Shown here: positions 11,468 to 64,000 of the stretch, one piece after another
How positions within the stretch are numbered: position 1 is the first letter of the stretch
Layout of the letters: every line of letters begins with the position of its first letter
Source of the DNA: Escherichia coli
GTDB taxonomy: Bacteria > Pseudomonadota > Gammaproteobacteria > Enterobacterales > Enterobacteriaceae
Length of the DNA: 64,000 bases
Reading direction: 5' to 3' (one strand)
Assembly: GCF_002854065.1 (NCBI RefSeq)
Contig: NZ_CP024147.1
Notes under the pieces: generated by a model
What the model saw: the letters and a program-made list of their open reading frames with translations, nothing else
Told to the model about the DNA's origin: nothing
The model's database searches: none
Position numbers and translations under genes: made by a program

Positions 11468-11473
11468 GGTTCA

Positions 11474-11517
11474 AACAGGTGCTGCACACAACCAGACGCG
11501 GCACCTGTTTTATTACC
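11474..11517. terminator. hairpin plus T-run between convergent yhgN and the DprA-like gene (likely bidirectional terminator)
   Basis: Arms aaacaggtgc (11474-11483) and gcacctgttt (11501-11510), followed by ttttatt. Confidence 0.5.
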
Positions 11518-12715
11518 TGAACTGATAATGACCTTCGCCCAATCGGATAACCCTTCCCTCTTCTTCTGCGCGGTTCAGCCACACACTAATTTGTTCGATG
11601 GTTAAACCAGTACAAGACGCCAGCCTTTCAATACTTATCGATTCCTTTGCAAGGATCGCCAGTTCCGCCACAAAGAGTTGATAAAAATCGACAGGCGTAT
11701 ACGCGGGCATTACTGCGTAATTTGCGTCATCTTCATGCAGCGAAAACAGTTCTGGTTGAGCGTTACGGAGTGCTCTGTCATACATCAGCCCAGGAACGTC
11801 TGGCAGTCTGATCGTCACATTCTCAGCCTGTTCAGCACTCCATGACGCCCCATTTTCTACTAATCGTGAATTGGCTGATTGCATATCCTGATTTGGTTTA
11901 ACCTGCACAGGCAGCCACTGATGTTTTAATGCCTCCATCGCCCCGGTTATCGTTCCACCGGTCATTCCCGCACGTACAACCATTGCGCTTTCAGCAAGGC
12001 AATAAATATATTTATTTCGCGCCATCGCATTGCCGACGGTGAAACGTACCTCTGGGTAAAACGGCGAAATCAACACCAGGTTGCCTGCTATAAGCCCTTC
12101 ACGCCATTTCACTAACGTACTCGTTTTTAACAAGCTATCAGCTAATACGCCAACGGCAGTTCCCCCGGCCTCCAGTACCGACGCCATTGCACATTCATCA
12201 ATACCTCGCGCACCACCAGAGATAACGCAAATCCCCTGTTGGGCCAGTTTCGCGGCCAGTTGTTGGGTATAGCGCAAATCGTCAGTCGGAGCATCTCGCG
12301 AGCCAACAATCGCCATACCTTCCGCTTGCAGTAATGCTTTATTCCCGCAGCCAAATAAAACGGGAGGTGCATCCGTTCGCAATCGGTTTTTCAAGCGAAC
12401 GGGATAATCAGCATCTCCGCGGGTTAAGATCCATAAACCGGCGCGTTGCCACTTATCTACCGCCAACGCCAGACTATGACCACGCGCCAGCAAGCCAAGA
12501 ATACGCTCCTGAGAAATACGCGGATCGCTCCAGCCTGTAAGTTTCTCTTGCGGTTGCGGCACCAGAAGCTCGGCGGGACTGATACGTTGGTGCTTCAGCC
12601 ATAATGCAAACTTCCCCCATTCACTATTACTAAGAGGTTTATACTCACTCGCCGCCGCGCGAGAAAAATCGCTGGTTAGCAGGAGAGTTGCTTGTGCATT
12701 GGCTGAAAGATTCAT
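11513..12715 (-). CDS. DprA/Smf-like (DNA-processing protein A family) protein
   Basis: ORF 11513..12808; DprA Rossmann-core signature ...IVGSRDAPTDDLRYTQQLAAKLAQQGICVISGGARGIDECAMASVLEAGGTAVGVLADSL... Start set at ATG 12713-12715, which overlaps the upstream TGA (12715-12717) by 1 nt; alternative start 12808. Confidence 0.75.
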   Translation of the reverse strand: MNLSANAQATLLLTSDFSRAAASEYKPLSNSEWGKFALWLKHQRISPAELLVPQPQEKLTGWSDPRISQERILGLLARGHSLALAVDKWQRAGLWILTRGDADYPVRLKNRLRTDAPPVLFGCGNKALLQAEGMAIVGSRDAPTDDLRYTQQLAAKLAQQGICVISGGARGIDECAMASVLEAGGTAVGVLADSLLKTSTLVKWREGLIAGNLVLISPFYPEVRFTVGNAMARNKYIYCLAESAMVVRAGMTGGTITGAMEALKHQWLPVQVKPNQDMQSANSRLVENGASWSAEQAENVTIRLPDVPGLMYDRALRNAQPELFSLHEDDANYAVMPAYTPVDFYQLFVAELAILAKESISIERLASCTGLTIEQISVWLNRAEEEGRVIRLGEGHYQFR

Positions 12716-14822
12716 CAATTTTTTACCGAGGTAGAAGCAAGGGCAAGAGGATAAACCGTCGGGCAACCTGCCTGGCGTAACAGTGCTGTCAGAACTGTCA
12801 GCGTCCATGCAGAATCCACGATATCGTCAACCAGCAACGCCGGACCAGGCATCAAAGGAGGGGTAATCACAAACGCCCCGTCGAGATTTTGACACTGGTG
12901 GAAACGGTTTTGCTGCATTTTCTGCGGTGGATTGTCCACGACTTTTTCAATGGCATCAATAATAGGTAAGCCAAGTTTCGCCGCCAGTCGCCGGGCAAAA
13001 TCAGGAACCAGGTCGAGGTGCTTTAATGAAGGAACGCAGCATACCCAGGTTGGTTCAGGATGCGGATTCCAGCGTTGGCGAACCATTTCCGCACATGCCT
13101 CCACCAGTTCATCACTGAATCGCCCCGTTTTTTTCTCCTGTGCTACCTGCTTTCCCCACCCGGAATCTCCCCAACGAGAAAGGATTCGCCCCGTAGATCC
13201 TTGTAAAATCGCAGGCAAGTTCCCTTTAAATCCGTATTGCGTAAAAGCCCCAGCTGCCACCTGTTTATTGAGATTTAATGACAGGTCAGCGTGTTTAATA
13301 AATAAGTTTGCCGCATGGAGTAAGCCGCTATCAATGTCGGGCGACAACAACGGATGCTGAAGACAACTGCTACATTTACCACAATGTTCGGCACCTGGCT
13401 CATCGAGTGCGCGGCGCAGAAATTGCATTTTGCACTCCTTGGTCGTGATATAGCTTTCAACGTCTGCCAGCTCACTTTTTCTCTGATTCATCAAATGGTT
13501 AATTCGTTCATGGTCAGGAGAAAAACTGACAATTGTTCTGCGCCATAATTTCTCGGTATACACCACAGGCGATGGATTTTCAGCTACCAATAATTTCAGT
13601 GCTTTTTCTATTTGCCCATAACGGAGATTCGTCCGTTGTTCAATGCCTCGTAAGGTAAGACCGTCATTCACGCTAAGTACGTTGAGTATTTCATGAATTT
13701 GCGCCTCCGCAGGAAAGGCGCTTTCACGGAAGAATTTATGAATAGCACGGTCTTCACTGCCGCAAAGCAGTATGCCAACAGCAGAATCGATACCGCGACC
13801 GGCACGCCCCACCTGTTGGTAGTAACCAACTATCGAACCTGGCATCTGGTAATGAATAACAAACCCCAAATCCGGTTTGTCAAAGCCCATTCCCAGCGCC
13901 GTTGTCGCAACCAGCACTTTAATTTTATTTGCCAGCAACGCCTGCTCCAGATATTCCCTGGCAGTATTAGAATCTTCCGCGCCTTCACAAGTCACGCCGC
14001 TGTAGTAAGCAAATGCACTGATACCATTTTTCCTTAACCACTCGGCGACAAGTTCGGCATCGCGAGTAGTCAGGGTATAAACAATTCCCGATTTGGAAAA
14101 CTGAGGGAAAACTGAGGGATAACCGTTGCTAACCATGCCAGACGGGATGACTGTTCACCTAAGACTAAGGCATCAAGCGCCAAACTTTCGCGAGCCAGCG
14201 TTCCACGCTGAATCACAATGTCACCCAATTGCTGACGGATATCCTCAACGACACGGTTATTCGCTGTCGCGGTTGTACCCAGAACAGGGGTATTCGCAGG
14301 TAGTTGGCGCAAAATATCTAATATACGTCGGTAATCCGGGCGAAAATCGTGGCCCCAATCAGAGATGCAGTGCGCCTCGTCGACCACAAGCAAGCCAATA
14401 TGATCGGCTATAGGATATAAAACCGTTTCGATAAAGTCCTGGTTTGCCAAACGTTCCGGGGAAACCAGCAAGCAATCGACCTCACCTTGCAGCAACTTAT
14501 CGCTAATGCGCTGCCATTCTTCTCTGTTTGTAGAATTCAACGTTTCAGCCGTAATACCTAACCGTTCAGCGGCGGCAACCTGGTTACGCATCAGGGCAAG
14601 CAAAGGAGAGATGATAATTGTCGGGCCAGCGCCGCGATCGCGGAAGATTTTACTGGCGATGAAGTACACAGCACTTTTCCCCCAGCCAGTGCGTTGGACA
14701 ACCAGCAGTTTTCGCCGTTGGTTCACCACCGCGTCTATGGCTTCCCATTGCCCTTCCCTGAAAGTAGCGGTGGTATTTCCTAACATCCGCTGTAAAAGCA
14801 ATTCAGCTGCGTGCTTTTCCAT
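12715..14822 (-). pseudogene. RecQ-like helicase fused to a C-terminal ComF/PRTase-like domain, frameshifted by an 11-bp tandem duplication
   Basis: Two overlapping minus-strand ORFs (14070..14822 and 12715..14136). The N-terminal part carries Walker A QRTGWGKS and DEAH-type VVDEAHCISDWGHDFRPDY; the C-terminal part carries the helicase C-domain (VATTALGMGFDKPDLGFVIHYQMPGSIVGYYQQVGRAGRG), a CxxCxxC cluster and a PRPP-binding-like ALLVDDIVDS segment. Deleting one 11-bp copy in silico joins them into a ~696-codon ORF (...ATVIPQFSKSGIVYTLTTRDAE...). Confidence 0.75.
14097..14118. repeat. perfect 11-bp tandem duplication (aaaactgaggg x2) causing the helicase frameshift
   Basis: Copies at 14097-14107 and 14108-14118 read directly from the sequence. 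Confidence 0.9.
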
Positions 14823-14922
14823 CTTTATCTCCTGCGATCTTTAGGCAGTGATTAGAACGGATTATTTGCAGGTAAATTTGCGAGAGAGATCAAAAAGATG
14901 AAGAGAGGAGAAAAGAGAAATG

Positions 14923-14950
14923 AATTACTGCGAGCAAGCTCGCAGTAATT
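14923..14950. terminator. perfect palindrome (13-bp arms, 2-nt centre) just downstream of gntU; probable gntU terminator, possibly also an operator
   Basis: aattactgcgagc-aa-gctcgcagtaatt; pyrimidine-rich tract follows on the minus strand; partial direct repeat cgcagtaatt at 14954-14963. Confidence 0.55.
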
Positions 14951-14961
14951 TGTCGCAGTAA

Positions 14962-19009: not shown

Positions 19010-20047
19010 TTACTTCGCGAGAGTCACTGTGGAGGGAGAGGCTTGCTCGAATCCGCGTTCAAGGATTTCCAGATTGGTAAGAACTTCAGATTCCTTGACG
19101 TAATTTGGCGCACCGTGGGTGATGGTTTGATACAACGCATCATAAACGCGCCCGTAATCGCCCATCTCCGGCTTCATCTCTTCTCTGACCGTCACGCCCT
19201 CGTCATTGACATACTCCAGCACACCGACCGAATCATCCGCTGCGAATCCCGGTTCGCCCGGCATAATATTAGCCTTCAGGCTGGTTTCCTGCTGGTCGAT
19301 ACCGTATTTAATAAACGAACCTTTCTTACCGTGAACGATAAATTTCGGATAATCGATTTTCACCAGATGGCTGGTTTTGACGATGGCTTTTAGATCGCCA
19401 TAAAACAGTTGCGCTTCGAAAGTATCGTCAGGATTGGCTTTAATGCGCAGGCTGCGGATGTCATAAGCGACGTGATCCGGGCGACCGAACAGAGAAATAA
19501 TCTGGTCCATCGTATGCACACCAAGGCCATAGAACGCGCCATCCTGCGGCAGCCCAGGTTTGGTTTCTGCCACCGGGCGGTAATAGTCAAAATGGCTTTC
19601 CACTTCGACAATCTCTCCCAGCTTGCCGCTTTCAATCGCTTTTTTCGCCGTCAGGAAGCAGGAATCAAAGCGACGATTCTGATATGGCGTGACGGTCAGC
19701 CCTTTGCTTTTCGCCAGTGCAAACAGCTCTTTCGCCTGCGCAAGTGTCGGAGTGAACGGTTTTTCGACCAGCACATTTTTCCCGGCTTCCAGCGCGCGCT
19801 TCGCGTACTCGAAGTGGCTGTCCGCATGGGTGCAGACAACAACCAGCTTAACATCGGGATCGTTTAGCACTTCGTTGAGATCGCTGGTGAAATGGATATG
19901 AGAGTAAATGGGAGCTTGTTCTTCCGGCTTTGCATGGCGGCGAAAAATATGCGCGACATGCCAGCTATCCTTGCGGTTAAGTACATACGGCAGATGGTAA
20001 CGGGTGGTGCTTTTGCCGAAGCCAATAAAGGCGCAGTTGATGACCAT
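19010..20047 (-). CDS. yhhX: Gfo/Idh/MocA-family oxidoreductase
   Basis: 345-aa ORF MVINCAFIGFGKSTTRYHLPYV... (N-terminal Rossmann). Confidence 0.9.
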   Translation of the reverse strand: MVINCAFIGFGKSTTRYHLPYVLNRKDSWHVAHIFRRHAKPEEQAPIYSHIHFTSDLNEVLNDPDVKLVVVCTHADSHFEYAKRALEAGKNVLVEKPFTPTLAQAKELFALAKSKGLTVTPYQNRRFDSCFLTAKKAIESGKLGEIVEVESHFDYYRPVAETKPGLPQDGAFYGLGVHTMDQIISLFGRPDHVAYDIRSLRIKANPDDTFEAQLFYGDLKAIVKTSHLVKIDYPKFIVHGKKGSFIKYGIDQQETSLKANIMPGEPGFAADDSVGVLEYVNDEGVTVREEMKPEMGDYGRVYDALYQTITHGAPNYVKESEVLTNLEILERGFEQASPSTVTLAK

Positions 20048-20169
20048 GATTTCGTCCTTTTTAAGGTGGTTATTTACACCTTAGCGCAAAGCGGACGTGG
20101 TTCCTACTGGAGTGCGCATAACGAACACAAGCACTTCCCGAGGATAAATTGAGAACGAAAGATCAAAAA

Positions 20170-20259
20170 AAAAGCCAGCACCCGGCTGGCTAAGTAATAC
20201 TGGAAGCAATGTGAGCAATGTCGTGCTTTCAGGTTCTCCGCGAGGGTCTTCCTGATCGC
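20170..20259 (-). ncRNA. ryhB: RyhB iron-sparing small RNA
   Basis: Reverse complement reads GCGATCAGGAAGACCCTCGCGGAGAACCTGAAAGCACGACATTGCTCACATTGCTTCCAGTATTACTTAGCCAGCCGGGTGCTGGCTTTT, ending in a terminator hairpin and U-run; lies in the yhhX-yhhY intergenic region. Confidence 0.9.
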
Positions 20260-20263
20260 GAGA

Positions 20264-20284
20264 CAATAATAATCATTCTCATTC
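20264..20284 (-). promoter_or_regulatory. Fur box overlapping the ryhB promoter
   Basis: Minus-strand gaatgagaatgattattattg resembles the GATAATGATAATCATTATC consensus, immediately upstream of the RyhB 5' end. Confidence 0.55.
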
Positions 20285-20380
20285 GCACTTGTCCAACACT
20301 TTTTGCAAAAAAATGCATTTGACTCGCATTCGAAAGTCAATGATGTTGAAAGGGACTTTTACCCCAAAGAGGACAAAGGA

Positions 20381-20869
20381 ATGAGTGAGATAGTGATACG
20401 CCATGCTGAAACGCGCGATTACGAGGCCATCAGGCAGATTCACGCCCAGCCGGAGGTGTATTGCAACACACTACAACTACCTCATCCTTCGGAAGGCTGG
20501 TGGCCAGAAAGATTGAAAGATCGCCAGGGTTTTAAACAACTGGTTGCCTGCATTGATGGCATCGTAGTGGGTCATCTTTTCATTGAGGCTTATCAAGGCC
20601 CACGCCGCAGTCATGTTGCAACTTTTGGTATCTGTGTTGACTCCCGCTGGCACAACCGCGGCATCGCCAGCGCCCTGATCCGCGAATTGATTGAAATGTG
20701 CGACAACTGGTTACGGATAGATCGTATTGAGTTGACGGTGTTTGCGGATAACGCCCCGGCAATCACAGTCTATAAAAAATTCGGATTTCACATAGAAGGC
20801 ACCGGCAAAAATTACGCTTTTCGTAATGGTGAATATGTCGATGCGTATTATATGGCGCGGGTGAAATAG
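20381..20869 (+). CDS. yhhY: GNAT-family N-acetyltransferase
   Basis: ORF 20303..20869; ATG at 20381 gives MSEIVIRHAETRDYEAIRQIH; GNAT acetyl-CoA motif region RGIASALI. Confidence 0.88.
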   Translation: MSEIVIRHAETRDYEAIRQIHAQPEVYCNTLQLPHPSEGWWPERLKDRQGFKQLVACIDGIVVGHLFIEAYQGPRRSHVATFGICVDSRWHNRGIASALIRELIEMCDNWLRIDRIELTVFADNAPAITVYKKFGFHIEGTGKNYAFRNGEYVDAYYMARVK

Positions 20870-20894
20870 AGAATTTGCAATCTAAGTTTGTCAT

Positions 20895-20925
20895 TTAAGC
20901 CCTCACCTACCGGGAGAGGGCTTAA
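20895..20925. terminator. hairpin between convergent yhhY and ggt
   Basis: Arms ttaagccctc (20895-20904) and gagggcttaa (20916-20925); no strong T-run. Confidence 0.4.
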
Positions 20926-20929
20926 GATA

Positions 20930-28314: not shown

Positions 28315-28435
28315 GCGGTGACGGTACGGGTGAGGGAAAATGGGAGATGGGGCACGGATATCCCGAGAATGCACTGAAAAGAGGCGATTAACGGCCAGCT
28401 AATCGCCAGAACTCCTTACCATGAAGAGCAAAAAT

Positions 28436-28466
28436 GGCAGCAAATTCTGCGTCCAGTTTTGCTGCC
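28436..28466 (-). terminator. hairpin plus T-run downstream of ORF 28537..29283 / liv operon
   Basis: Arms ggcagcaaa (28436-28444) and tttgctgcc (28458-28466); minus strand continues atttttgctctt. Confidence 0.45.
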
Positions 28467-28536
28467 CGATGAGAGCTACATTTTTCAATTTTAACAAAAG
28501 ATTGCCGCGACACTGGTCTAACGGCAAAGAAGATTT

Positions 28537-29283
28537 TCATTGCACCACACTCTGCTTCAACCGTTCATTGGCGGTCTTAATCCATTCCCGGTGGTGTTTT
28601 CTATAATGAGGTCTTGAGCGTTTAGCCGTATCAACTACAGCAACATACTGCTCGTTGGCTTCACGTAACCGACTCATTTTCGCCAACATTTCCGCATAGT
28701 AAATACGCGCCTGCGGGCCGGGGTAATAAGAAATCAATACTTCAAACTCGCTTTCCGCATCAGCGTATTTTTCTTGTGCGGCTAACGTTCTGGCAAATAA
28801 CAAATGCCCGTCTGCCGACTGAAAATCAGGGTTATAACGCATCACATCTTCCAGCGTCTGCTGACAGGCGGCGAACTCCTGAATAGCAAACTGTGCCTGC
28901 GCCAGGCTTAGCATCATTGCCGCTTCATGGGCGAATATCCCGCTTAACGCCTGCTGATAATGGGGAACGGCTTCGTGGTAACGCTCCAGACGCGCCAGCT
29001 CGTTGGCAAGTTGATAGTGGTTTTGATTGGTCTCGGCAATCGCCAGCTCTTCGGTTAATTTGCGCAGGTGACGTTCCGGATTGATTTTGTCCTGCAGGCG
29101 CATCAGAAAGGTACGCCCGTGACGGTCAGCGCCCGTTTCTGGCAGCATCACCATGACAAAATACGCCACGCAACCAATCACCGGAAAACAGAAGATGATA
29201 AAAAACCAATATCGCTCTTGTCCGGTACGGTAAGCGTGGATACAGCAAAGCATTTCAAGCATGGCGACAACGGCATAATGCAT
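28537..29283 (-). CDS. hypothetical membrane-anchored protein (PLDc_N-like hydrophobic N-terminus plus TPR-like helical repeats)
   Basis: 248-aa ORF; N-terminus HAYRTGQERYWFFIIFCFPVIGCVAYFVMVML resembles the N-terminal anchor of phospholipase-D-like proteins; C-terminal helical repeats (YHEAVPHYQQAL...); no K-12 gene recalled. Confidence 0.6.
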   Translation of the reverse strand: MHYAVVAMLEMLCCIHAYRTGQERYWFFIIFCFPVIGCVAYFVMVMLPETGADRHGRTFLMRLQDKINPERHLRKLTEELAIAETNQNHYQLANELARLERYHEAVPHYQQALSGIFAHEAAMMLSLAQAQFAIQEFAACQQTLEDVMRYNPDFQSADGHLLFARTLAAQEKYADAESEFEVLISYYPGPQARIYYAEMLAKMSRLREANEQYVAVVDTAKRSRPHYRKHHREWIKTANERLKQSVVQ

Positions 29284-29401
29284 GGGAGGGAACCTTTCCG
29301 TGGCAAATAAGTGGTCTGGTTTTAATCCTCCCGGTCAGTTGAAACAAGTCTGTATACGGACGAATAACCCGGCAGAACTTAGCTGCCGGGTTATTGATAA
29401 T

Positions 29402-48557: not shown

Positions 48558-49607
48558 ATGGAAACCCCTCAACCCGATAAAACGGGCATGCACATTCTGC
48601 TCAAGCTGGCCTCGCTGGTAGTGATCCTGGCGGGCATTCACGCAGCGGCAGATATCATTGTGCAGCTGTTACTGGCGCTGTTTTTTGCCATCGTCCTCAA
48701 CCCGCTCGTCACCTGGTTTATTCGTCGGGGAGTACAACGCCCCGTTGCCATTACGATTGTAGTGGTGGTGATGCTGATCGCACTAACCGCGCTGGTCGGC
48801 GTACTGGCGGCATCGTTTAACGAATTTATCTCTATGCTGCCGAAGTTTAATAAGGAGCTGACGCGCAAACTTTTTAAATTGCAGGAGATGTTGCCTTTTC
48901 TTAATTTGCATATGTCGCCGGAGCGAATGCTGCAGCGGATGGACTCGGAAAAAGTGGTTACCTTCACCACGGCGCTAATGACCGGGCTTTCCGGGGCAAT
49001 GGCGAGCGTGCTTTTGCTGGTGATGACCGTAGTTTTTATGCTGTTTGAAGTGCGCCACGTCCCTTACAAAATGCGTTTTGCGCTGAATAACCCACAGATT
49101 CACATCGCAGGATTACACCGCGCACTTAAAGGCGTTTCGCATTATCTGGCGTTAAAGACGCTACTCAGTTTATGGACAGGTGTCATCGTCTGGCTGGGGC
49201 TGGAGCTGATGGGGGTGCAGTTTGCGCTGATGTGGGCAGTACTGGCGTTTTTGCTTAACTACGTGCCCAATATCGGCGCGGTAATTTCCGCCGTACCGCC
49301 AATGATTCAGGTGCTGCTGTTTAATGGTATTTACGAATGTATTCTGGTCGGCGCATTGTTTTTAGTTGTCCATATGGTCATCGGCAATATTTTAGAGCCA
49401 CGGATGATGGGCCATCGCCTGGGGATGTCCACCATGGTGGTATTTCTTTCATTGTTAATTTGGGGATGGCTGCTCGGCCCGGTAGGGATGCTACTTTCGG
49501 TGCCATTAACCAGCGTGTGTAAAATCTGGATGGAAACGACGAAAGGCGGTAGCAAACTGGCGATTTTACTGGGGCCGGGCAGACCGAAAAGTCGGTTACC
49601 GGGTTAA
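48558..49607 (+). CDS. yhhT: AI-2E/PerM-family transporter
   Basis: ORF 48477..49607; ATG at 48558 (RBS aagga) gives METPQPDKTGMHILLKLASLVV. Confidence 0.9.
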   Translation: METPQPDKTGMHILLKLASLVVILAGIHAAADIIVQLLLALFFAIVLNPLVTWFIRRGVQRPVAITIVVVVMLIALTALVGVLAASFNEFISMLPKFNKELTRKLFKLQEMLPFLNLHMSPERMLQRMDSEKVVTFTTALMTGLSGAMASVLLLVMTVVFMLFEVRHVPYKMRFALNNPQIHIAGLHRALKGVSHYLALKTLLSLWTGVIVWLGLELMGVQFALMWAVLAFLLNYVPNIGAVISAVPPMIQVLLFNGIYECILVGALFLVVHMVIGNILEPRMMGHRLGMSTMVVFLSLLIWGWLLGPVGMLLSVPLTSVCKIWMETTKGGSKLAILLGPGRPKSRLPG

Positions 49608-49626
49608 TAGCACCTCCTGAGCAGGC

Positions 49627-49657
49627 AATGGCCACCGTTTATCTAACAGTGGCCATT
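49627..49657 (+). terminator. yhhT terminator hairpin
   Basis: Arms aatggccac (49627-49635) and gtggccatt (49649-49657), followed by tgatttg. Confidence 0.45.
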
Positions 49658-49659
49658 TG

Positions 49660-49986
49660 ATTTGAGGAAATGATGAAACATTATTCAGAAAATTAATTTA
49701 AAAAAACCATTCCTTAAGTCAAATATATATAAACGCCGAATAGCGATTAAATCCTTCTCAAAGAATGCACTGATAACATTGTGTTATTTTTATTGCCTCA
49801 TTTTTCTCACTCACTTATAGTTGGTCCCTGCTGGCAGTAATTTAGTCATTTCAGAGATTTTTACTCTGATGTGCACTTACTGACTTATCTCACAAGTAAT
49901 TTTTTCTCTAAATAAAGAATAGTGATGCCAGCAATTACAGTTAAATCTTGCTTTACTCGTAAAAACAATACTTTAATGGGGTTCTA
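49660..49986. other. AT-rich junction between core (yhhT) and accessory cluster; probable island boundary and cluster promoter
   Basis: Visibly AT-rich (long A/T runs), no ORFs in any frame, immediately precedes the first cluster gene. Confidence 0.6.
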
Positions 49987-50376
49987 ATGAGACATTACAT
50001 GAAGTGGTTTGCGGCTATTGCTGTTGTGGGTGCTTTAGCAGGTTGCGCGCGTACTGCGCCAATTGATCAGGTTCACTCAACCGTCAGCGCTGGTCATACC
50101 CAGGAACAAGTGAAAAAAGCGATTCTGAAAGCTGGCGTTGAACGCAAATGGATTATGTCCGAAGCCGGACAAGGCATAATTAAAGCACGTCAACAGTCAC
50201 GCGATCATTCAGCGGAAATACGCATTAACTACACGGCATCCAGCTACGATATCAATTATGAAAATAGCCAGAACCTACAAGCGTCAGGCGGACAAATTCA
50301 TAAAAACTACAATCGCTGGGTCCGCAATCTCGACAAAGATATTCAACTGAATTTGTCAGCGGGCGCAGATTTATAA
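49987..50376 (+). CDS. small lipoprotein, first gene of the APE-type cluster
   Basis: 129-aa ORF MRHYMKWFAAIAVVGALAGC (signal peptide plus lipobox); alternative start 49999; lower GC than downstream genes. Confidence 0.7.
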   Translation: MRHYMKWFAAIAVVGALAGCARTAPIDQVHSTVSAGHTQEQVKKAILKAGVERKWIMSEAGQGIIKARQQSRDHSAEIRINYTASSYDINYENSQNLQASGGQIHKNYNRWVRNLDKDIQLNLSAGADL

Positions 50377-50435
50377 TTCTTCCTAAAGTCGGGCCGTTGC
50401 GGTCCGATAATAATTTAATTCCCTCTTAACAGGTT

Positions 50436-51503
50436 GTGCCCAACATGTACGAACAGGATTCTCTTAGCGCACTGGATGCGATTACCGAAGCTCAACGCAT
50501 TGCCTTTGCCCCTATGCTTTTTCAAACAGCACTCTGCCTACGTAATGCGGGTGTACTTTCATATCTGGATCGGCAAGGCAAACATGGCGCAACGCTGGCT
50601 GATATCACCGAACATAGCCATATCAACGAATATGCTGCCAGCGTTCTGTTAGATATGGGCTTAAGCGGGCGAATTATTACCTGTAAAGAGGGAATTTATT
50701 ACCTGGCGAAAATCGGTCATTACCTCCTGCATGACACTATGACTCGCGTGAATATGGATTTCACCCAGGATGTCTGTTACCAGGGGCTCTTCTTCCTCGC
50801 CGATTCACTCAATGAAGGAAAACCTTCCGGGTTAAAAGTATTTGGCGACTGGTCGACGATATATCCGGCACTTTCGCAATTACCAGACGCCGCTCGTGAA
50901 AGCTGGTTTGCGTTTGATCATTACTATTCAGATGGCGCATTTAACGCCGTACTGCCTTATGTATTCGCCAACAACCCCACAACATTGTACGATGTAGGCG
51001 GCAATACGGGTAAGTGGGCTTTGCGTTGCTGCAAATACAATGAAAACATCGCCGTGACGTTATTAGATCTGCCACAACAAATCGTACTAGCGAAAGAAAA
51101 TATCGCGAATGCAGGTTTTTCTGATCGCATAGATTTCCATGCGGTGGATATGCTAAGCGATGCCCCATTACCGGGCGAGGCTGATATCTGGTGGATGAGC
51201 CAATTTTTAGACTGTTTTTCACCCGAACAAATAATTAGCATACTCAGCAAAATTGCCAGCGTAATGAAGCCTGGCGCAAAAGTTTGCATCATGGAGTTGT
51301 TCTGGGATGCGCAGCGGTTTGAAGCAGCATCGTTTAGCCTGAACGCGTCCTCACTTTATTTTACCTGCATGGCAAACGGTAACAGCCGTTTCTATAGTGC
51401 AGAGAAATTTTACGACTATCTGAATAAAGCAGGATTCCAGGTAGCAGAGCGCCACGATAATTTAGGCGTTGGGCATACACTTTTGATATGCCAAAAGAAA
51501 TAA
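50436..51503 (+). CDS. apeB: SAM-dependent (O-)methyltransferase
   Basis: 355-aa ORF; Rossmann SAM motif LYDVGGNTGKWAL. Symbol inferred from conserved ape cluster order; verify. Confidence 0.7.
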   Translation: MPNMYEQDSLSALDAITEAQRIAFAPMLFQTALCLRNAGVLSYLDRQGKHGATLADITEHSHINEYAASVLLDMGLSGRIITCKEGIYYLAKIGHYLLHDTMTRVNMDFTQDVCYQGLFFLADSLNEGKPSGLKVFGDWSTIYPALSQLPDAARESWFAFDHYYSDGAFNAVLPYVFANNPTTLYDVGGNTGKWALRCCKYNENIAVTLLDLPQQIVLAKENIANAGFSDRIDFHAVDMLSDAPLPGEADIWWMSQFLDCFSPEQIISILSKIASVMKPGAKVCIMELFWDAQRFEAASFSLNASSLYFTCMANGNSRFYSAEKFYDYLNKAGFQVAERHDNLGVGHTLLICQKK

Positions 51504-51543
51504 TCGTCACTTAATAATTTTGGTTTACCGCGGGCGCGCGTTG

Positions 51544-52266
51544 ATGAAATTTACATTAAATATTACCGACTGGCAGGCACTGGCGCCTGGACTTAGCGAA
51601 GCGCAGCAATGGCAAGCATGGTCGCGCCAGCCGTGGGCGATTGACCCTGCCGCGCCGTTGGCAAAATTAAGTGAACTGCCAATGATGACCGCCCGCCGCC
51701 TCAGTTCAGGCAGCAAACTGGCTGTTGAATGCGGTCTGGCAATGCTACGCCGCCATCAGCCAGACGCCGTTTTGTATACCAGTCGTCATGGCGAACTGGA
51801 GCGCAATTACCGCATTGTTCATGCACTGGCAACCGAACAGGCGCTTTCTCCGACGGACTTCGCGCTCTCCGTACACAACTCTTCCGTGGGTAACCTGACC
51901 ATTGCGGCCAAACAGCCGATCGTTTCGTCATCGCTTTCGGCTGGTCGCGACACTTTCCAGCAAGGTTTGTGTGAAGTGCTTAGTCTGTTACAGGCGGGCT
52001 ACCAGCGCGTGTTGATGGTCGATTTTGATGGCTTTCTGCCTGAGTTCTATCATCCACAACTGCCCGCAGAAATGCCGACCTGGCCGTACGCCGTCGCGCT
52101 GGTGATTGAAGCTGGCGATGAGTGGCAATGTGGAACGCAGTCAGCCATTGCGGGTAATGAAACAACACTGCCGCAAAGCATGTTGTTTTTACAGCACTAT
52201 TTACAAAATGCGGACACATTTTCACTGCCTGGCGAGCGCGTACAGTGGCGCTGGAGCCGTGGATGA
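51544..52266 (+). CDS. apeC: short KS-like partner protein (chain-length-factor-like)
   Basis: ORF 51520..52266 (TTG); ATG at 51544 gives MKFTLNITDWQALAPG; about 240 aa, far shorter than a full KAS; ATGA overlap with the next gene. Confidence 0.6.
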   Translation: MKFTLNITDWQALAPGLSEAQQWQAWSRQPWAIDPAAPLAKLSELPMMTARRLSSGSKLAVECGLAMLRRHQPDAVLYTSRHGELERNYRIVHALATEQALSPTDFALSVHNSSVGNLTIAAKQPIVSSSLSAGRDTFQQGLCEVLSLLQAGYQRVLMVDFDGFLPEFYHPQLPAEMPTWPYAVALVIEAGDEWQCGTQSAIAGNETTLPQSMLFLQHYLQNADTFSLPGERVQWRWSRG

Positions 52267-53084
52267 GTAAGCTGCTGTCACGTCTGGAGTGGACCTGGCG
52301 ACTGGTCATGACCGGGTTATGTTTTGCCCTGTTTGGTCTCGGCGGCCTGCTGCTTTCTGTCGTGTGGTTTAACATATTGTTAGTTTTGGTGTGGGATACT
52401 TCCCGCCGCCGTCGTTTGGCGCGTCGCAGCATTGCCGCCAGTTTTCGCCTGTTTTTAACTGTCGCGAAAGGGCTTGGCGTGCTGGATTATCGTATTGATG
52501 GCGCTGAAATTTTACGTCAGGAACGCGGTTGCCTCGTCGTAGCCAATCATCCCACGCTGATCGATTACGTGCTGCTGGCGTCAGTCATGCCAGAAACTGA
52601 CTGCCTGGTGAAAAGCGCGCTGTTAAAAAATCCTTTTCTTGGCGGCGTCGTGCGGGCGGCAGATTATTTAATCAACAGCGAAGCTGAAACCCTGTTACCC
52701 CGCTGCCAACAGCGACTGGCACAGGGTGACACTATCCTGATTTTCCCCGAAGGCACGCGAACGAAGCCCGGTGAAAAAATGACGCTGCAGCGCGGGGCGG
52801 CGAATATTGCCGTGCGCTGTGCCAGCGATTTACGCATCGTGACGATCGGCTGTAGCGAGCATCTGCTGGATAAACAAAGTAAATGGTATGACGTTCCACC
52901 TGACCGGCCGTTTTTTACGGTTGCAGTCCATGGTCGGGTTGAAATCAATAAATTTTACGATGCAACTTCACAAGAACCGGCGCTGGCAGCAAGGCAGTTA
53001 AACCGGCATCTTTTGCTTCAATTACAACAAGGTTGTTTACCTCTCTCAGGAATAAATAATGCAAGCGCTTTATCTGGAAATTAA
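52263..53084 (+). CDS. lysophospholipid/glycerol-3-phosphate acyltransferase family protein
   Basis: ORF 52245..53084; HX4D motif NHPTLIDY and FPEGTRT motif; start chosen at the ATGA overlap (52263). Confidence 0.75.
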   Translation: MSKLLSRLEWTWRLVMTGLCFALFGLGGLLLSVVWFNILLVLVWDTSRRRRLARRSIAASFRLFLTVAKGLGVLDYRIDGAEILRQERGCLVVANHPTLIDYVLLASVMPETDCLVKSALLKNPFLGGVVRAADYLINSEAETLLPRCQQRLAQGDTILIFPEGTRTKPGEKMTLQRGAANIAVRCASDLRIVTIGCSEHLLDKQSKWYDVPPDRPFFTVAVHGRVEINKFYDATSQEPALAARQLNRHLLLQLQQGCLPLSGINNASALSGN

Positions 53085-53316
53085 AAACCTCATCATCAGC
53101 ACCCTCAATCTGGACGAGTTGACGCCTGATGATATCGATACCGACGCGCCGCTGTTTGGCGACGGTTTAGGGCTGGACTCTATCGATGCCCTGGAACTGG
53201 GACTGGCAGTAAAAAATGAGTACGGCATCGTGCTCTCTGCGGAAAGCGAAGAGATGCGTCAGCACTTTTTCTCCGTCGCCACTCTGGCCTCTTTCATTGC
53301 TGCGCAACGTGCCTGA
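53059..53316 (+). CDS. apeE: acyl carrier protein
   Basis: 85-aa acidic ORF with phosphopantetheine-site motif LGLDSIDALEL. Confidence 0.8.
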   Translation: MQALYLEIKNLIISTLNLDELTPDDIDTDAPLFGDGLGLDSIDALELGLAVKNEYGIVLSAESEEMRQHFFSVATLASFIAAQRA

Positions 53317-53327
53317 GGAAAGCCATC

Positions 53328-53579
53328 ATGACAGAACAACAAACCGTCTATCAGGAAGTCTCAGCCCTGCTGGTTAAGCTGTTTGAAATCGATCCGCAGG
53401 ACATCAAACCTGAAGCGCGCCTGTACGAAGATCTGGAACTGGACAGCATCGACGCCGTTGACATGATTGTGCACCTGCAAAAGAAAACCGGTAAGAAAAT
53501 CAAGCCGGAAGAGTTTAAAGCAGTGCGTACAGTCCAGGATGTCGTCGAGGCTGTAGAACGCCTGCTACAAGAAGCCTGA
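53328..53579 (+). CDS. apeF: acyl carrier protein
   Basis: 83-aa ORF with LELDSIDAVDM motif. Confidence 0.8.
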   Translation: MTEQQTVYQEVSALLVKLFEIDPQDIKPEARLYEDLELDSIDAVDMIVHLQKKTGKKIKPEEFKAVRTVQDVVEAVERLLQEA

Positions 53580-53583
53580 TCTG

Positions 53584-54165
53584 ATGTCGGGCATTCGCTC
53601 GCTACCGATGATTAAGCTGCTGACTGGATTATTGCTGCTCGCCTGGCCGTTTGTGATTTGGTTTGGCTTAGCGCATAACGGCCTGCACTGGCTGTTGCCG
53701 CTAATAGCGTTGCTGCTTTTGTTGCGCCTGCGCCAGACCCGTCGCCAGGCGGGGCCGCTCCAGGTCGTCACACAAATCGTCGCTGTCGTGGGCATCGCAT
53801 TATGTGTCGCCAGCGTTCTGTTGAAAACACACCAGCTACTGCTGTTTTACCCGGTAGTGGTTAACGCGGTCATGCTGGCGGTTTTTGGCGGTTCGCTGTG
53901 GTCGGCAATGCCGATAGTTGAGCGGCTGGCGCGTTTGCAGGAGCCAGATCTGCCGGAAAAGGGCATGCGCTATACCCGCCGCGTCACGCAAATCTGGTGC
54001 GGCTTTTTCATCATCAACGGTGGAATTGCCCTCTTTACCGCGCTTTATGCCGATATGTCGTTATGGACCGCCTGGAACGGCATGATTGCTTATTTGTTGA
54101 TGGGAACATTAATGGCTGGTGAATGGCTGGTGCGCCGTCAGGTGATGAAAAGAGATCGCGCATGA
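53584..54165 (+). CDS. integral membrane protein of unknown function
   Basis: 193-aa ORF with several hydrophobic segments (LLLAWPFVIWFGL, VVGIALCVASVLL, ...). Confidence 0.65.
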   Translation: MSGIRSLPMIKLLTGLLLLAWPFVIWFGLAHNGLHWLLPLIALLLLLRLRQTRRQAGPLQVVTQIVAVVGIALCVASVLLKTHQLLLFYPVVVNAVMLAVFGGSLWSAMPIVERLARLQEPDLPEKGMRYTRRVTQIWCGFFIINGGIALFTALYADMSLWTAWNGMIAYLLMGTLMAGEWLVRRQVMKRDRA

Positions 54166-55523
54166 AGCAGACCTTACCGCTTGCACGCTGGCTGACTGCG
54201 CCACGCTCTGATGACACACCCATTGCGTGGCTGGACGAAAGCTTCTGGACGCTGGGCGATTTGCGTCACGATGTCGCGCAACTTATCTGCCGCTTGCAGC
54301 AACAGCCGGGTGAACGCTGGGCGCTGTGCTTTGAGAACAGCTATCTGTTTATCGTTGCCCTGCTCGCCACGCTACACGCCGGAAAAACGCCGGTGCTTCC
54401 GGGGCATAACCGTGTTATCCAGCTTAACGAGCAACGTGAACTTTTTGATGGTGTGCTTAGCGACAGCGAACTTAACTGGCAAGGTTCATTGCTGTTGGTA
54501 GCAAGTTCCCCACAAATCGCGACACAATCCTTCACCTTTGCCGCTATAGCGCCAGAGGCTTTTATCGAGCTGTTTACCTCCGGTTCCACGGGACAGCCGA
54601 AACGGGTGATTAAACCTGTTCATTTGCTGGATCGTGAAGCAGAACTGCTGGCTGAACGATTAGGCGCACGTCTGGCGGGTTGTCGTGTCGTCGGTTCCGT
54701 ATTGCCGCAGCATTTGTACGGCCTGACTTTTCGCGTTTTCCTGCCCATGGCGTTGGGATTACCGCTGCACGCCGCCATGCTCTGGTATGTCGAACAGTTT
54801 GCCGCGTTGAGTCATCAGCATCGCTATATCTTCATCAGCAGCCCGGCATTTTTGAAGCGCCTGGATACCCAGCTTTCTCCGCCACCCGTTCAGGTGCTTC
54901 TCTCTGCTGGCGGTGAGCTGCCGTGGCAGGATGTACAACACACCGCAAGCTGGCTGCGCGTCTGGCCTGATGAAATCTACGGCAGCACGGAAACCGGTGT
55001 CATCGCCTGGCGTTACCGCGAACAAGAGCAACGCCGCTGGCTACCCTTCCCTGGTATGCAGTTCCAGGCCGAAGGTGATTCTTTTCGTCTCTTTTCACCG
55101 CTGATGGCGGAAGATAACGGCCTGTTACTCGACGATCTCTTGCAGTTTAGCCAGGACGGTCAGTTCCATCTGATGGGGCGTCGTGGGCGCATCGTTAAGA
55201 TTGAAGAAAAACGTATTTCACTCCAGGAAGTAGAACAACGTCTGCTGGCGCTGGACGGTATTCGCGAGGCGGCGGCAGTTCCCGTTACGCGCGGCGGGCG
55301 TCAGAGCATAGGCGTTTTGCTGGTGCTGGATGACGAAGCTCATCTGCAATGGCAGAACGGCGGCGGGCATAGCCAGGAAATGACCTGGCGGCGTTTACTG
55401 CGCCCGACGCTGGAGCCAGTTGCTATTCCGCGTTACTGGCGCGTTATTGATGAAATGCCAGTAAACAGTATGAACAAGCGTGTCTATGCGCAATTACAGG
55501 AGTTATTTCATGAAGCCCCATGA
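54162..55523 (+). CDS. apeH: AMP-dependent synthetase/ligase (acyl/aryl-activating enzyme)
   Basis: ORF 54123..55523; start at the ATGA overlap 54162 (MKQTLPLARW); AMP-binding motif TSGSTGQPKRV. Confidence 0.78.
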   Translation: MKQTLPLARWLTAPRSDDTPIAWLDESFWTLGDLRHDVAQLICRLQQQPGERWALCFENSYLFIVALLATLHAGKTPVLPGHNRVIQLNEQRELFDGVLSDSELNWQGSLLLVASSPQIATQSFTFAAIAPEAFIELFTSGSTGQPKRVIKPVHLLDREAELLAERLGARLAGCRVVGSVLPQHLYGLTFRVFLPMALGLPLHAAMLWYVEQFAALSHQHRYIFISSPAFLKRLDTQLSPPPVQVLLSAGGELPWQDVQHTASWLRVWPDEIYGSTETGVIAWRYREQEQRRWLPFPGMQFQAEGDSFRLFSPLMAEDNGLLLDDLLQFSQDGQFHLMGRRGRIVKIEEKRISLQEVEQRLLALDGIREAAAVPVTRGGRQSIGVLLVLDDEAHLQWQNGGGHSQEMTWRRLLRPTLEPVAIPRYWRVIDEMPVNSMNKRVYAQLQELFHEAP

Positions 55524-55863
55524 AATCGAGCGCCATCAGGCACAAACGAATCACCTTGAAATTGTTCTGCATCTCAGGGCGGATCTGTTCTGGTTTCGCG
55601 GTCATTTTGCCGTGCAACCATTACTCCCAGGAGTTGCGCAAATCGACTGGGCGATGAGCTACGCGCTCAATCTGCTCGCGCCTGGCTGGCGTTTTCACTC
55701 CATTCAGAACATAAAATTCCAGTCTCCGTTGCTGCCGGAAAACCGCGTCACGCTCGCGCTTAACTGGCAGGAAGAACGCCAGATTCTGAGCTTTAGCTAT
55801 CAGCGTCACGACGGTGACGCCCGCCACACCGCCAGTAGCGGGAAGATCCGCCTATGTCGGTAA
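55510..55863 (+). CDS. apeI: hotdog-fold (3R)-hydroxyacyl-ACP dehydratase-like protein
   Basis: ORF 55480..55863; FabA/FabZ-like motif GHFAVQPLLPGV; start 55510 overlaps the upstream gene. Confidence 0.7.
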   Translation: MKPHEIERHQAQTNHLEIVLHLRADLFWFRGHFAVQPLLPGVAQIDWAMSYALNLLAPGWRFHSIQNIKFQSPLLPENRVTLALNWQEERQILSFSYQRHDGDARHTASSGKIRLCR

Positions 55864-57530
55864 ACTTTTCTCCCTGCGTGTTGATTCCCTGCTATAACCA
55901 CGGCGCGATGATGCCGGGCGTGCTGGCGCGTCTTAAGCCATTTAATCTCCCCTGTATTGTGGTGGACGACGGCAGCGATGCCGCCACGCAACAGCAACTG
56001 GATAATCTGGTTAGCGAACAGCCTGGCGTGACCTTAATTCGCTTAGCAGAAAACGCAGGTAAAGGCGCGGCAGTGATGCGTGGCTTACAGGCAGCGGCAG
56101 ACGCAGGGTTCAGCCATGCGGTGCAGGTGGATGCTGACGGTCAACATGCGATTGAAGATATCCCCAAACTGCTGGCACTCGCTGAACGACACCCTGCGGC
56201 GCTGATCTCCGGCCAGCCAATTTACGATGACTCCATCCCCCGCTCACGGCTTTACGGGCGCTGGGTCACCCACGTCTGGGTATGGATCGAAACGCTCTCC
56301 CTGCAACTGAAAGACAGCATGTGCGGCTTTCGCGTTTATCCGGTTGCGCCAACGCTGCAACTGGCAAAACACGCCACCATCGGCAAGCGGATGGATTTCG
56401 ACACTGAAGTGATGGTGCGCCTCTACTGGCAGGGAAACACCAGCTATTTCGTGCCGACCCGCGTCACCTATCCACTGGACGGGCTTTCGCATTTTGATGC
56501 CCTGAAAGATAACGTCCGCATCTCGCTCATGCACACGCGTCTGTTTTTCGGCATGTTACCGCGTATTCCTTCACTGCTGATGCGCCGCTCTTCCAGCCAC
56601 TGGGCGCGGCAGAGTGAAGTGAAAGGATTATGGGGAATGCGCCTGATGCTGCTGGTCTGGCGTCTGCTGGGAAGAACGGCGTTTAGCGCGCTGCTTTACC
56701 CGGTGGTGGGCGTCTACTGGCTCACTGCTTCTCGTGCGCGCAAAGCGTCGCAAGACTGGCTCGCCCGTGTACGACAGCATCAACCACAGGCGGCAAAACT
56801 CAACAGCTATCAGCACTTTCTACGTTTCGGTAATGCCATGCTCGACAAAATCGCCAGTTGGCGCGGCGAGCTGCAACTGGGGCGCGATGTGCTGTTTGCG
56901 CCAGGCGCAGAAGCGGCACTTAACGTCAGCGATCCGCGCGGCAAATTGCTGCTGGCCTCGCATCTTGGCGATGTGGAAGTGTGCCGGGCGCTGGCAAAAA
57001 TTCAGGGCTACAAAACCATTAACGCGCTGGTGTTTAGCGAAAACGCCCAACGCTTTAAACAGATAATGCAGGAGATGGCCCCGCAGGCCGGCATCAACCT
57101 GATGCCGGTAACGGATATCGGCCCGGAAACCGCCATCCTGCTCAAAGAGAAGCTGGATAACGGCGAATGGGTGGCGATTGTCGGTGACCGCATCGCCGTC
57201 AACCCGCAACGCGGCGGCGACTGGCGCGTCTGCTGGAGTCCGTTTATGGGCCAGCCTGCGCCCTTCCCACAGGGGCCGTTTATTCTCGCGTCTATTTTGC
57301 GCTGCCCGGTGAATCTGATTTTCGCCCTGCGCCAGCACGGCAAGCTGCATATTCACTGCGAAACCTTTGCCGACCCGCTGCTGTTGCCGCGTGGCGAACG
57401 CCAACAGGCGCTGCAAAACGCTATCGACCACTACGCCGCGCGTCTGGAACATTACGCGCTCCAGTCGCCCCTCGACTGGTTTAATTTTTTCGATTTCTGG
57501 CAACTGCCGGAAATTCAGGACAAGGAGTAA
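55854..57530 (+). CDS. bifunctional GT2 glycosyltransferase / lipid-A-type acyltransferase-like protein
   Basis: 558 aa; N-terminus CVLIPCYNHG...VVDDGSDA...DADGQH (GT-A DxD); C-terminal half resembles HtrB/LpxL-type acyltransferases. Confidence 0.7.
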   Translation: MSVNFSPCVLIPCYNHGAMMPGVLARLKPFNLPCIVVDDGSDAATQQQLDNLVSEQPGVTLIRLAENAGKGAAVMRGLQAAADAGFSHAVQVDADGQHAIEDIPKLLALAERHPAALISGQPIYDDSIPRSRLYGRWVTHVWVWIETLSLQLKDSMCGFRVYPVAPTLQLAKHATIGKRMDFDTEVMVRLYWQGNTSYFVPTRVTYPLDGLSHFDALKDNVRISLMHTRLFFGMLPRIPSLLMRRSSSHWARQSEVKGLWGMRLMLLVWRLLGRTAFSALLYPVVGVYWLTASRARKASQDWLARVRQHQPQAAKLNSYQHFLRFGNAMLDKIASWRGELQLGRDVLFAPGAEAALNVSDPRGKLLLASHLGDVEVCRALAKIQGYKTINALVFSENAQRFKQIMQEMAPQAGINLMPVTDIGPETAILLKEKLDNGEWVAIVGDRIAVNPQRGGDWRVCWSPFMGQPAPFPQGPFILASILRCPVNLIFALRQHGKLHIHCETFADPLLLPRGERQQALQNAIDHYAARLEHYALQSPLDWFNFFDFWQLPEIQDKE

Positions 57531-57533
57531 AGG

Positions 57534-57956
57534 GTGCTTAACGATCCCCGATTTACCGCTGAAGTCGAGCTGACCATTCCCTTTCACGACGTCGATATGA
57601 TGGGCGTGGCCTGGCACGGTAACTATTTTCGCTACTTTGAAGTGGCCCGCGAGGCGCTGCTCAACCAGTTCAATTACGGCTATCGGCAGATGAAAGAGTC
57701 CGGTTATTTGTGGCCAGTGGTCGATGCGCGGGTGAAATATCGCCACGCCCTCACCTTTGAGCAACGCATCCGCGTGCGTGCGCATATCGAAGAGTTCGAA
57801 AACCGTCTGCGGATTGGCTATCAGATTTTCGATGCCGAAACGGGCAAACGCGCCACCACCGGATACACCATTCAGGTCGCGGTCGACGAGCAAAGTCGCG
57901 AACTGTGCTTTGTCAGCCCCGATATTCTGTTTGAACGCATGGGAGTCAAACCATGA
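57534..57956 (+). CDS. apeK: 4HBT/YbgC-type acyl thioesterase
   Basis: 140-aa ORF (GTG start); hotdog thioesterase pattern HDVDMMGVAWHGNYFRYFEVAR. Confidence 0.75.
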   Translation: MLNDPRFTAEVELTIPFHDVDMMGVAWHGNYFRYFEVAREALLNQFNYGYRQMKESGYLWPVVDARVKYRHALTFEQRIRVRAHIEEFENRLRIGYQIFDAETGKRATTGYTIQVAVDEQSRELCFVSPDILFERMGVKP

Positions 57957-58558
57957 AATTTTTACCGCTACTGGCGCTGCTGATTAGCCCGTTTGTGAGC
58001 GCCCTGACCCTGGACGATCTTCAGCAACGCTTTACCGAACAATCGGTGATCCGCGCCCATTTCGATCAAACCCGGACGATTAAAGATCTGCCGCAGCCGC
58101 TGCGATCTCAGGGCCAGATGTTGATCGCCCGCGACCAGGGGCTGTTGTGGGATCAAACCTCACCGTTCCCCATGCAACTATTACTGGACGATAAACGCAT
58201 GGTGCAGGTGATCAACGGTCAGCCGCCGCAAATCATCACGGCAGAAAACAACCCGCAGATGTTTCAGTTTAACCACCTGCTGCGCGCGCTGTTCCAGGCC
58301 GATCGCAAAGTGCTGGAACAAAACTTCCGCGTCGAATTTACCGACAAAGGCGAAGGCCGCTGGACGCTGCGCCTGACCCCAACCACCACGCCGCTGGATA
58401 AAATTTTCAACACCATCGATCTCGCCGGGCAAACCTATCTGGAGAGCATTCAACTTAATGATAAACAGGGCGATCGCACCGATATTGCTCTTACCCAACA
58501 TCAACTGACGCCAGCGCAACTGACCGATGACGAACGCCAACGTTTTGCCGCCCAGTAA
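57953..58558 (+). CDS. LolA-like outer-membrane lipoprotein carrier
   Basis: 201 aa, signal peptide MKFLPLLALLISPFVSA; LolA-family length and layout. Confidence 0.65.
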   Translation: MKFLPLLALLISPFVSALTLDDLQQRFTEQSVIRAHFDQTRTIKDLPQPLRSQGQMLIARDQGLLWDQTSPFPMQLLLDDKRMVQVINGQPPQIITAENNPQMFQFNHLLRALFQADRKVLEQNFRVEFTDKGEGRWTLRLTPTTTPLDKIFNTIDLAGQTYLESIQLNDKQGDRTDIALTQHQLTPAQLTDDERQRFAAQ

Positions 58559-63789: not shown

Positions 63790-64000
63790 CACGTCGCGTA
63801 GTGATTACAGGAATGGGCGGCGTGACTGCCTTTGGTGAAAACTGGCAGGACGTTTCTGCACGCTTACTGGCGTATGAAAATGCGGTGCGCAAAATGCCGG
63901 AGTGGCAGGTCTACGATGGCCTGCACACCCTGCTTGGCGCGCCTGTTGATGATTTCACGCTACCGGAGCACTATACCCGCAAGCGTATCCGTGCGATGGG
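63786..64000 (+). CDS. apeR: beta-ketoacyl-ACP synthase (partial, N-terminal 71 codons; continues beyond window)
   Basis: ATG at 63786 (ATGA overlap with KR); MTRRVVITGMGGVTAFGENWQD (KAS N-terminus). Confidence 0.75.
   Translation, partial: MTRRVVITGMGGVTAFGENWQDVSARLLAYENAVRKMPEWQVYDGLHTLLGAPVDDFTLPEHYTRKRIRAM

Follow-up and report, generated by a model that had tools for sequence, protein, structure and literature searches.

The closest described system is ryhB of Escherichia coli K-12 MG1655 (b4451, SraI; NC_000913 3580922-3581016, minus strand), which is repressed directly by Fur and whose RNA base-pairs with the sodB and sdhCDAB mRNAs, needs Hfq for its action and leads, through RNase-dependent decay of its targets, to an iron-sparing response (PMC3788343). 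For this same K-12 sequence, the induction of ryhB upon iron limitation or fur deletion is known, as are the Hfq-dependent stability of the RNA and the decay of its targets (PMC3788343). As far as the promoter is concerned, an oligonucleotide carrying the K-12 ryhB site is shifted by Fur in gel assays, and, according to an information-theory model, the spacer between yhhX and yhhY contains a 25.2-bit cluster of Fur sites located at -15 of ryhB (PMC2189734). At the other end of the gene, the U-tail of RyhB consists of 9 U, and poly-U is required at the 3' end for Hfq binding (PMC4509938). The orthologous ryhB of K. pneumoniae occupies the same yhhX-yhhY position as that of E. coli (PMC3415461).

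More generally, the RyhB homologues and paralogues of other Enterobacterales (RyhB and RyhB-2 of K. pneumoniae, as well as the second copies of Yersinia, Serratia, Photorhabdus and Pantoea) contain the same 27-nt core and, just as in E. coli, are preceded by a Fur box and end in an intrinsic terminator with a long U-tail. They differ from E. coli in the sequence and the length of their 5' regions and also in the Fur box, which in most of the other Enterobacterales homologues reads GATAATGATTATTATTG, as opposed to GAGAATGATTATTATTG in E. coli. What is more, the second RyhB copies of other Enterobacterales occupy different loci.

PrrF1 and PrrF2 of Pseudomonas (RF00444) are functional analogues of RyhB; namely, they are Fur-repressed and down-regulate iron-containing proteins. 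Both are covered by a published list of homologues (PMC3788343). That said, PrrF shows no real sequence or structure relationship to the DNA analysed here, a 64-kb stretch of E. coli DNA that we refer to as the window: its match reaches 21.3 bits (E 0.32) where the threshold is 90, and apart from this sub-threshold match a permissive Rfam scan of positions 19900-20500 gave nothing extra. We rejected the PrrF match, below threshold as it is, as a product of chance or of shared A/T-rich and terminator features.

Identity and anatomy of ryhB in the window

We are nearly certain that the ryhB copy in the window is functional and encodes the small regulatory RNA that E. coli uses in its iron-sparing response, repressed by Fur and dependent on Hfq. 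The gene is located in the 333-nt intergenic region between yhhX (minus strand) and yhhY (plus strand), in the same position and the same orientation as in MG1655. This is the orthologous position expected of RyhB, and the same arrangement is found in related genera. The individual parts are as follows.

20165-20259, minus strand: ryhB gene, by 100% identity to MG1655 b4451 and by the Rfam RF00057 match
20165-20173, minus strand: run of nine T, read directly from the sequence; 3' poly-U tail of the RNA and part of the Hfq-binding module
20173-20191, minus strand: hairpin of the Rho-independent terminator, AGCCAGCCGGGTGCTGGCT, from the terminator scan
20200-20226, minus strand: conserved 27-nt core, GCACGACATTGCTCACATTGCTTCCAG, RyhB nt 34-60, the target-pairing region, from the exact-match scan
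20214-20222, minus strand: sodB-pairing nucleotides, GACAUUGCU, RyhB nt 38-46, from the 9-bp sodB complement
20262-20280, no strand assigned: Fur box, the palindromic operator GACAATAATAATCATTCTC, by match to the consensus; identical in K-12
20266-20271, minus strand: -10 hexamer TATTAT, positions -12 to -7, from the promoter scan; identical in K-12
20290-20295, minus strand: -35 hexamer TGGACA, with an 18-nt spacer to the -10, from the promoter scan

In an Rfam scan of the 64-kb window, the RyhB family (RF00057), for which the gathering score is 55, matched at 20166-20230 on the minus strand with 83.1 bits (E 3.6e-14). This is the only gathering-level Rfam match in the window, it was repeated on the intergenic region, and it spans the whole of the model, from 1 to 67. 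Since the model represents just the 3' 67 nt of RyhB, the 5' end of the RNA lies beyond what it can verify; the 5' 29 nt are 100% identical to the curated MG1655 ryhB annotation. By identity to K-12, transcription starts at G 20259, the 90-nt RNA corresponds to 20170-20259 on the minus strand, and a 95-nt annotation in the style of MG1655 runs over 20165-20259, its lower end being the last T of the U-tract. An earlier note on this DNA had claimed a 90-nt RyhB on the minus strand of the yhhX-yhhY spacer and had named, beforehand, an Rfam scan of the interval as the refuting test; the match well above threshold, together with the identity to MG1655, confirms the claim. The interval given there, 20170-20284, was right in that the RNA, the -10 hexamer and the Fur box lie inside it, but it leaves the -35 hexamer just outside, and its lower end is 5 nt short of the end of the U-tract at 20165. 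Folded as a single sequence, the 90-nt RNA is not more stable than its shuffles (z = -0.67), a result that speaks neither for nor against the assignment. We encountered no sequence evidence against the RyhB identity.

The ryhB promoter is the sole sigma-70-like promoter that a consensus scan found in 20000-20450, with 10 of 12 consensus positions matched. The Fur box agrees with the 19-bp consensus GATAATGATAATCATTATC at 16 of 19 positions, and it is the one match with up to 3 mismatches in the entire 64 kb, where 0.01 would be expected from shuffled sequences. Counted from the start at 20259, it extends from -3 to -21 and therefore lies over the -10 hexamer, which is the position expected of a repressor that blocks RNA polymerase. 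In other words, the Fur-box-like site that had been reported across the promoter is indeed there, and the operator, to which Fur is predicted to bind, overlaps the promoter as one would expect for the RyhB family. The terminator had been reported as well, and it is the single intrinsic terminator detected in the scanned 20000-20450: a hairpin at 20191-20173 with a 7-bp stem, 5 G-C pairs and a 5-nt loop, followed by the T-run. A Rho-independent terminator with a long 3' U-tail is a further property of the family, and binding of Hfq to it is predicted.

The single-stranded target-pairing core of the RyhB family is present too, its 27 nt being the same as in K-12. In particular, all 9 nt of RyhB 38-46 can pair with positions -4 to +5 of K-12 sodB (AGCAAUGUC), a perfect complement that reaches across the AUG. 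How specific is this complementarity? In a seed test, RyhB nt 31-68, the region from the 5' hairpins to the terminator, was compared with sodB -30 to +21, the latter taken from K-12, and a 9-bp complement was reached by 0.5% of 2014 ATG-centred control windows and by 1% of shuffled seeds. The duplex energy in the same test is not distinctive, as 18% of the ATG-centred control windows score equally; the one distinctive feature was the perfect 9-bp complement over the AUG. The complementarity to the sodB initiation region that is typical of the family is thus found here, with sodB taken from K-12. Folding the full-length 90-nt RyhB against 100 nt of sodB resulted in an end-to-end duplex that does not exceed controls. 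That test was poorly designed because it ignores intramolecular structure, and the seed-region test was used in its place. The identity of this RyhB, its anatomy, its complementarity to sodB and its conservation, to which we return below, are direct results of the present analysis.

As for the mechanism, Fur binding, Hfq dependence and target decay are known from published work on the K-12 sequence, which is identical, and would combine in the following way. With sufficient iron, Fur carrying Fe2+ would occupy the operator that overlaps the -10 hexamer and would block the sigma-70 promoter. With iron scarce, Fur would depart, allowing an RNA of about 90 nt to be made from 20259 and to end at the intrinsic terminator. 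Hfq would bind RyhB through the 3' hairpin and the terminal poly-U tail, and the single-stranded core would pair with mRNAs for non-essential iron proteins (e.g. sodB and sdhCDAB) at their translation-initiation regions. Such pairing would block translation and bring about RNase-dependent decay of the mRNAs, whereby iron would be saved. Since the RNA is identical to K-12 RyhB, the interactions established in K-12 should apply, provided that the targets are intact in the genome from which the window derives.

Conservation across genera

The 27-nt core occurs exactly in at least 120 loci of Enterobacterales, Aeromonadales and Vibrionales, and a genome often contains two copies of it (exact-match scan). 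Among the matches listed, 115 instances have enough flank for a search of the 100 nt upstream of the core, and a Fur box is present there in 80% of them if up to 4 mismatches are allowed, and in 96.5% if up to 5 are. As controls, these two levels were reached by 0 of 2300 and by 0.09% of random windows taken from the same loci, and by 0.04% and 0.74% of shuffled upstream sequences. Similarly, a terminator hairpin with a T-run, defined as a hairpin of at least 6 bp and then at least 5 T within 60 nt of the core, accompanies 107 of 121 instances among the matches listed. Here, ten distinct pairs of terminator arms are seen, each mutually complementary (GCCAGC/GCTGGC, GCCCGC/GCGGGC, GGCCAG/CTGGCC and GCCGGC/GCCGGC being examples); the terminator stem is maintained through compensatory changes.

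To map conservation in the spacer between yhhY and ryhB, we footprinted it by a MAFFT alignment of 40 unique sequences, drawn from many genera. The block that dominates the conservation outside the core is composed of the ryhB -35 and the Fur box with the -10, ACAAGTGCGAATGA[T/G]AATGATTATTATTG. Across the 40 unique sequences, the ACA of the -35 hexamer is kept and the -10 hexamer is nearly invariant between genera. The 5' third of RyhB varies across genera both in sequence and in length.

Two exact RyhB cores at different loci were observed in many species, of Yersinia, Photorhabdus, Serratia, Pantoea, Hafnia, Pectobacterium and others (loci L008/L009, L014/L015, L029/L030 and L040/L041). In two further loci, L084 (Salinivibrio costicola) and L088, two cores are arranged in tandem about 307 nt apart, each with a Fur-box-like site.

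The neighbouring genes yhhX and yhhY

On its two sides, ryhB is flanked by the following features.

19010-20047, minus strand: yhhX, GFO/IDH/MocA-family oxidoreductase, from the ORF list and Pfam, matching the E. coli annotation
20048-20097, minus strand: yhhX-proximal block, GCGCTAAGGT ... ACCTTAAAAAGGAC ... ATG, conserved in 16 loci
20319-20347, plus strand: candidate yhhY promoter, by inference; TTGACT at 20319-20324, a 17-nt spacer and GATGTT at 20342-20347
20381-20869, plus strand: yhhY, GNAT N-acetyltransferase, from the ORF list and Pfam, matching the E. coli annotation

Could the Fur-regulated promoter be there mainly for yhhX? One can argue for a ryhB-yhhX operon in which ryhB serves as terminated leader, much as sgrS does for setA, and in which readthrough makes yhhX iron-responsive. 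We regard this as a doubtful reading, although several observations are in its favor. In both systems, an sRNA gene with a leaky terminator is followed by a protein gene on the same strand; co-transcription has been shown for sgrS-setA, while for ryhB-yhhX it is suggested only (PMC4509938). Namely, ryhB 'seems to be co-transcribed' with yhhX, which in the words of the same authors 'has not been shown experimentally' (PMC4509938). In normal growth, approximately 20% of polymerases pass the ryhB terminator; termination improves under stress, and in iron depletion it is enhanced and not relaxed (PMC4509938). That said, yhhX mRNA does go up in low iron, and this response is lost in a ryhB deletion that also lacks the promoter (PMC8896160).

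The spacing between the two genes speaks on both sides as well. In the window, yhhX is on the same strand as ryhB and lies 117 nt downstream of the U-tract, and the yhhX start codon follows the U-tract after as little as 39 nt in two Enterobacter-type loci. However, this spacer is anything between 39 and 450 nt long over the 16 loci measured, several more loci have yhhX beginning 843-1465 nt downstream of the core, and REP-like palindromic insertions are present in the spacer of some Escherichia and Citrobacter loci. Moreover, among the matches listed, the tandem ryhB-yhhX arrangement occurs in 20 of 89 loci, whereas RyhB itself is far more widespread.

Between ryhB and yhhX, no further sigma-70-like promoter came out of the consensus scan, as the readthrough reading would have it. 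On the other hand, a conserved GCGCTAWGGT, located some 30 nt before the yhhX start codon and with its TAAGGT at about 20077-20082 of the window, resembles a -10 element of yhhX's own. In all 16 of the 16 loci examined, which come from several genera (L005-L116), GCGCTA[A/T]GGT ... ACCTTAAAAAGGAC stands directly upstream of the yhhX start codon, and the gap that separates this block from the RyhB U-tract can be close to zero or as long as about 400 nt, REP-like palindromes included. The block may comprise a -10-like element or promoter of yhhX, its 5' UTR and its ribosome-binding site. In the two Enterobacter-type loci, the block abuts the RyhB U-tract, so any -35 would fall inside the terminator. 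Taken together, the comparative data on ryhB-yhhX co-transcription are mixed and give neither clear support nor exclusion. We put forward only tentatively, and as something rather unlikely, the view that in E. coli and its close relatives the ryhB promoter and the leaky terminator provide an iron-responsive entry to yhhX, forming a conditional operon. The reading we prefer for the locus remains that of a functional small RNA gene.

As concerns the opposite side, yhhY is divergent from ryhB, an arrangement kept in 42 of 104 loci among the matches listed; in the divergent loci among these, the yhhY start codon is 142-212 nt from the core, mostly 150-160. Among the matches listed, divergent yhhY-ryhB is more widely conserved than tandem ryhB-yhhX. 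The TTGA(C) at 20319-20323 is one of the few conserved footprint blocks outside the ryhB promoter, and since TTGAC is conserved across genera, 20319-20347 may be the promoter of yhhY, with TTGAC at 20319-20323 as its plausible -35 element. This candidate is below the cut of the consensus promoter scan of 20000-20450. It would stand back-to-back with the ryhB promoter, approximately 45 bp from the Fur box. A literature search on Fur regulation of yhhY gave nothing that addresses it directly.

At 20873-20929 of the window, yhhY is followed directly by ggt, where K-12 has yhhZ-yrhA::IS1-yrhD-yrhB. The K-12 segment absent here amounts to about 3.45 kb (NC_000913 3581629-3585080), and strain 100416 is arranged likewise.

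Conservation within E. coli and the annotation of the locus

When compared with MG1655, the RNA, promoter, Fur box and terminator of the window copy are identical, and the intergenic alignment is without differences from well upstream of the -35 to 23 nt beyond the U-tract. The 333-nt spacer as a whole contains 4 differences from K-12 (3 substitutions and one 1-nt indel), none of them in the sRNA or the promoter. The earlier description of the locus as fully conserved is therefore accurate, RNA, promoter and Fur box being base-for-base those of the characterised K-12 ryhB. The same picture emerges from the population: the ryhB intergenic region was found in 5424 of 5426 complete E. coli genomes, and 5386 of these 5424 have the 141-nt block of sRNA and promoter at an identity of at least 99%.

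These numbers bear directly on the idea that the locus might be a silent or decaying relic of ryhB, whose expression or function has been lost in this strain. Nothing in the sequence is in its favor. We consider it very improbable, since neither the RNA and its terminator nor the Fur box and the -35 and -10 hexamers show a single substitution against K-12, and since identity of the block at the level of at least 99% in 5386 of 5424 genomes is what purifying selection would give; the two together rule out a decayed relic in practice. That the interval encodes a small protein instead of a non-coding RNA is even further from being credible: the six-frame list does contain two minus-strand ORFs with TTG starts, 20081-20266 (61 aa) and 20104-20340 (78 aa), but transcription starts at 20259, downstream of either start codon, which leaves both codons out of the RNA, each ORF continues through the terminator, the core-terminator linker and the 5' region change length across species in non-multiples of three, and the 27-nt core is invariant, without third-position variation and unlike coding sequence, the transcription-start position and the indel pattern ruling out a protein-coding reading of these overlapping ORFs.

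Some exceptional genomes were seen in the same survey. In 2 of the 5426 complete E. coli genomes, there was no match to the ryhB region, and a few genomes have two or three places for it (5429 places in 5424 genomes). The copy in NZ_CP195448.1 is 93.9% identical, with an apparent indel.

Elsewhere in the window, several stretches depart from K-12. A 3.5-kb insertion at 11468-14961, between yhgN and gntU, is absent from K-12 and contains a PsyrTA-type module; of the 5426 complete E. coli genomes, 1650 have the insertion. It includes the DprA-like PsyrA at 11513-12808 on the minus strand (PADLOC E 7e-202) and the RecQ-like helicase PsyrT, the latter divided between two ORFs (14070-14822 and 12715-14136) that overlap, lie in different frames and match profile positions 5-241 and 237-687, respectively, a split that suggests a frameshift. 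Upstream of ugpB, in the ugpB-livF gap, a 1-kb stretch at 28361-29401 takes the place of 215 bp of K-12 and contains a 248-aa TPR-repeat ORF (28537-29283, minus strand) for which PADLOC gave no match. Finally, collinearity with K-12 ends after yhhT, where K-12 has acpT-nikABCDER. In its place, 49604-64000 carries a lipid/polyketide-type cluster that resembles aryl-polyene clusters, with genes for an O-methyltransferase, ketoacyl synthases, an acyltransferase, an AMP-binding enzyme, a glycosyltransferase, a LolA-like protein, an MMPL transporter, a DUF3261 protein, an ApeP-like dehydratase and an SDR reductase.

What do these results mean for the locus? Nothing in it deviates from textbook RyhB, and it is therefore already known and ordinary. 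RyhB is among the best-studied bacterial small RNAs and the window copy is identical to the reference, so its biological interest is small and its value lies in annotation. Namely, the remark in the earlier note that the gene is invisible to ORF-based annotation proved correct also for RefSeq: the PGAP records of E. coli that we examined carry no feature under the sRNA, and among the records examined an ncRNA feature exists only in the curated one of MG1655. As both ORF tracks and the examined PGAP records miss ryhB, a covariance-model pass is needed in order to label the yhhX-yhhY spacer correctly, and labelling ryhB prevents gene calls on the spurious overlapping ORFs of 61 and 78 aa. The sole point of research value, a minor one that has already been raised in the literature, is the co-transcription of ryhB with yhhX, and a role of readthrough in yhhX expression would add to the function of RyhB as a small RNA, not replace it.
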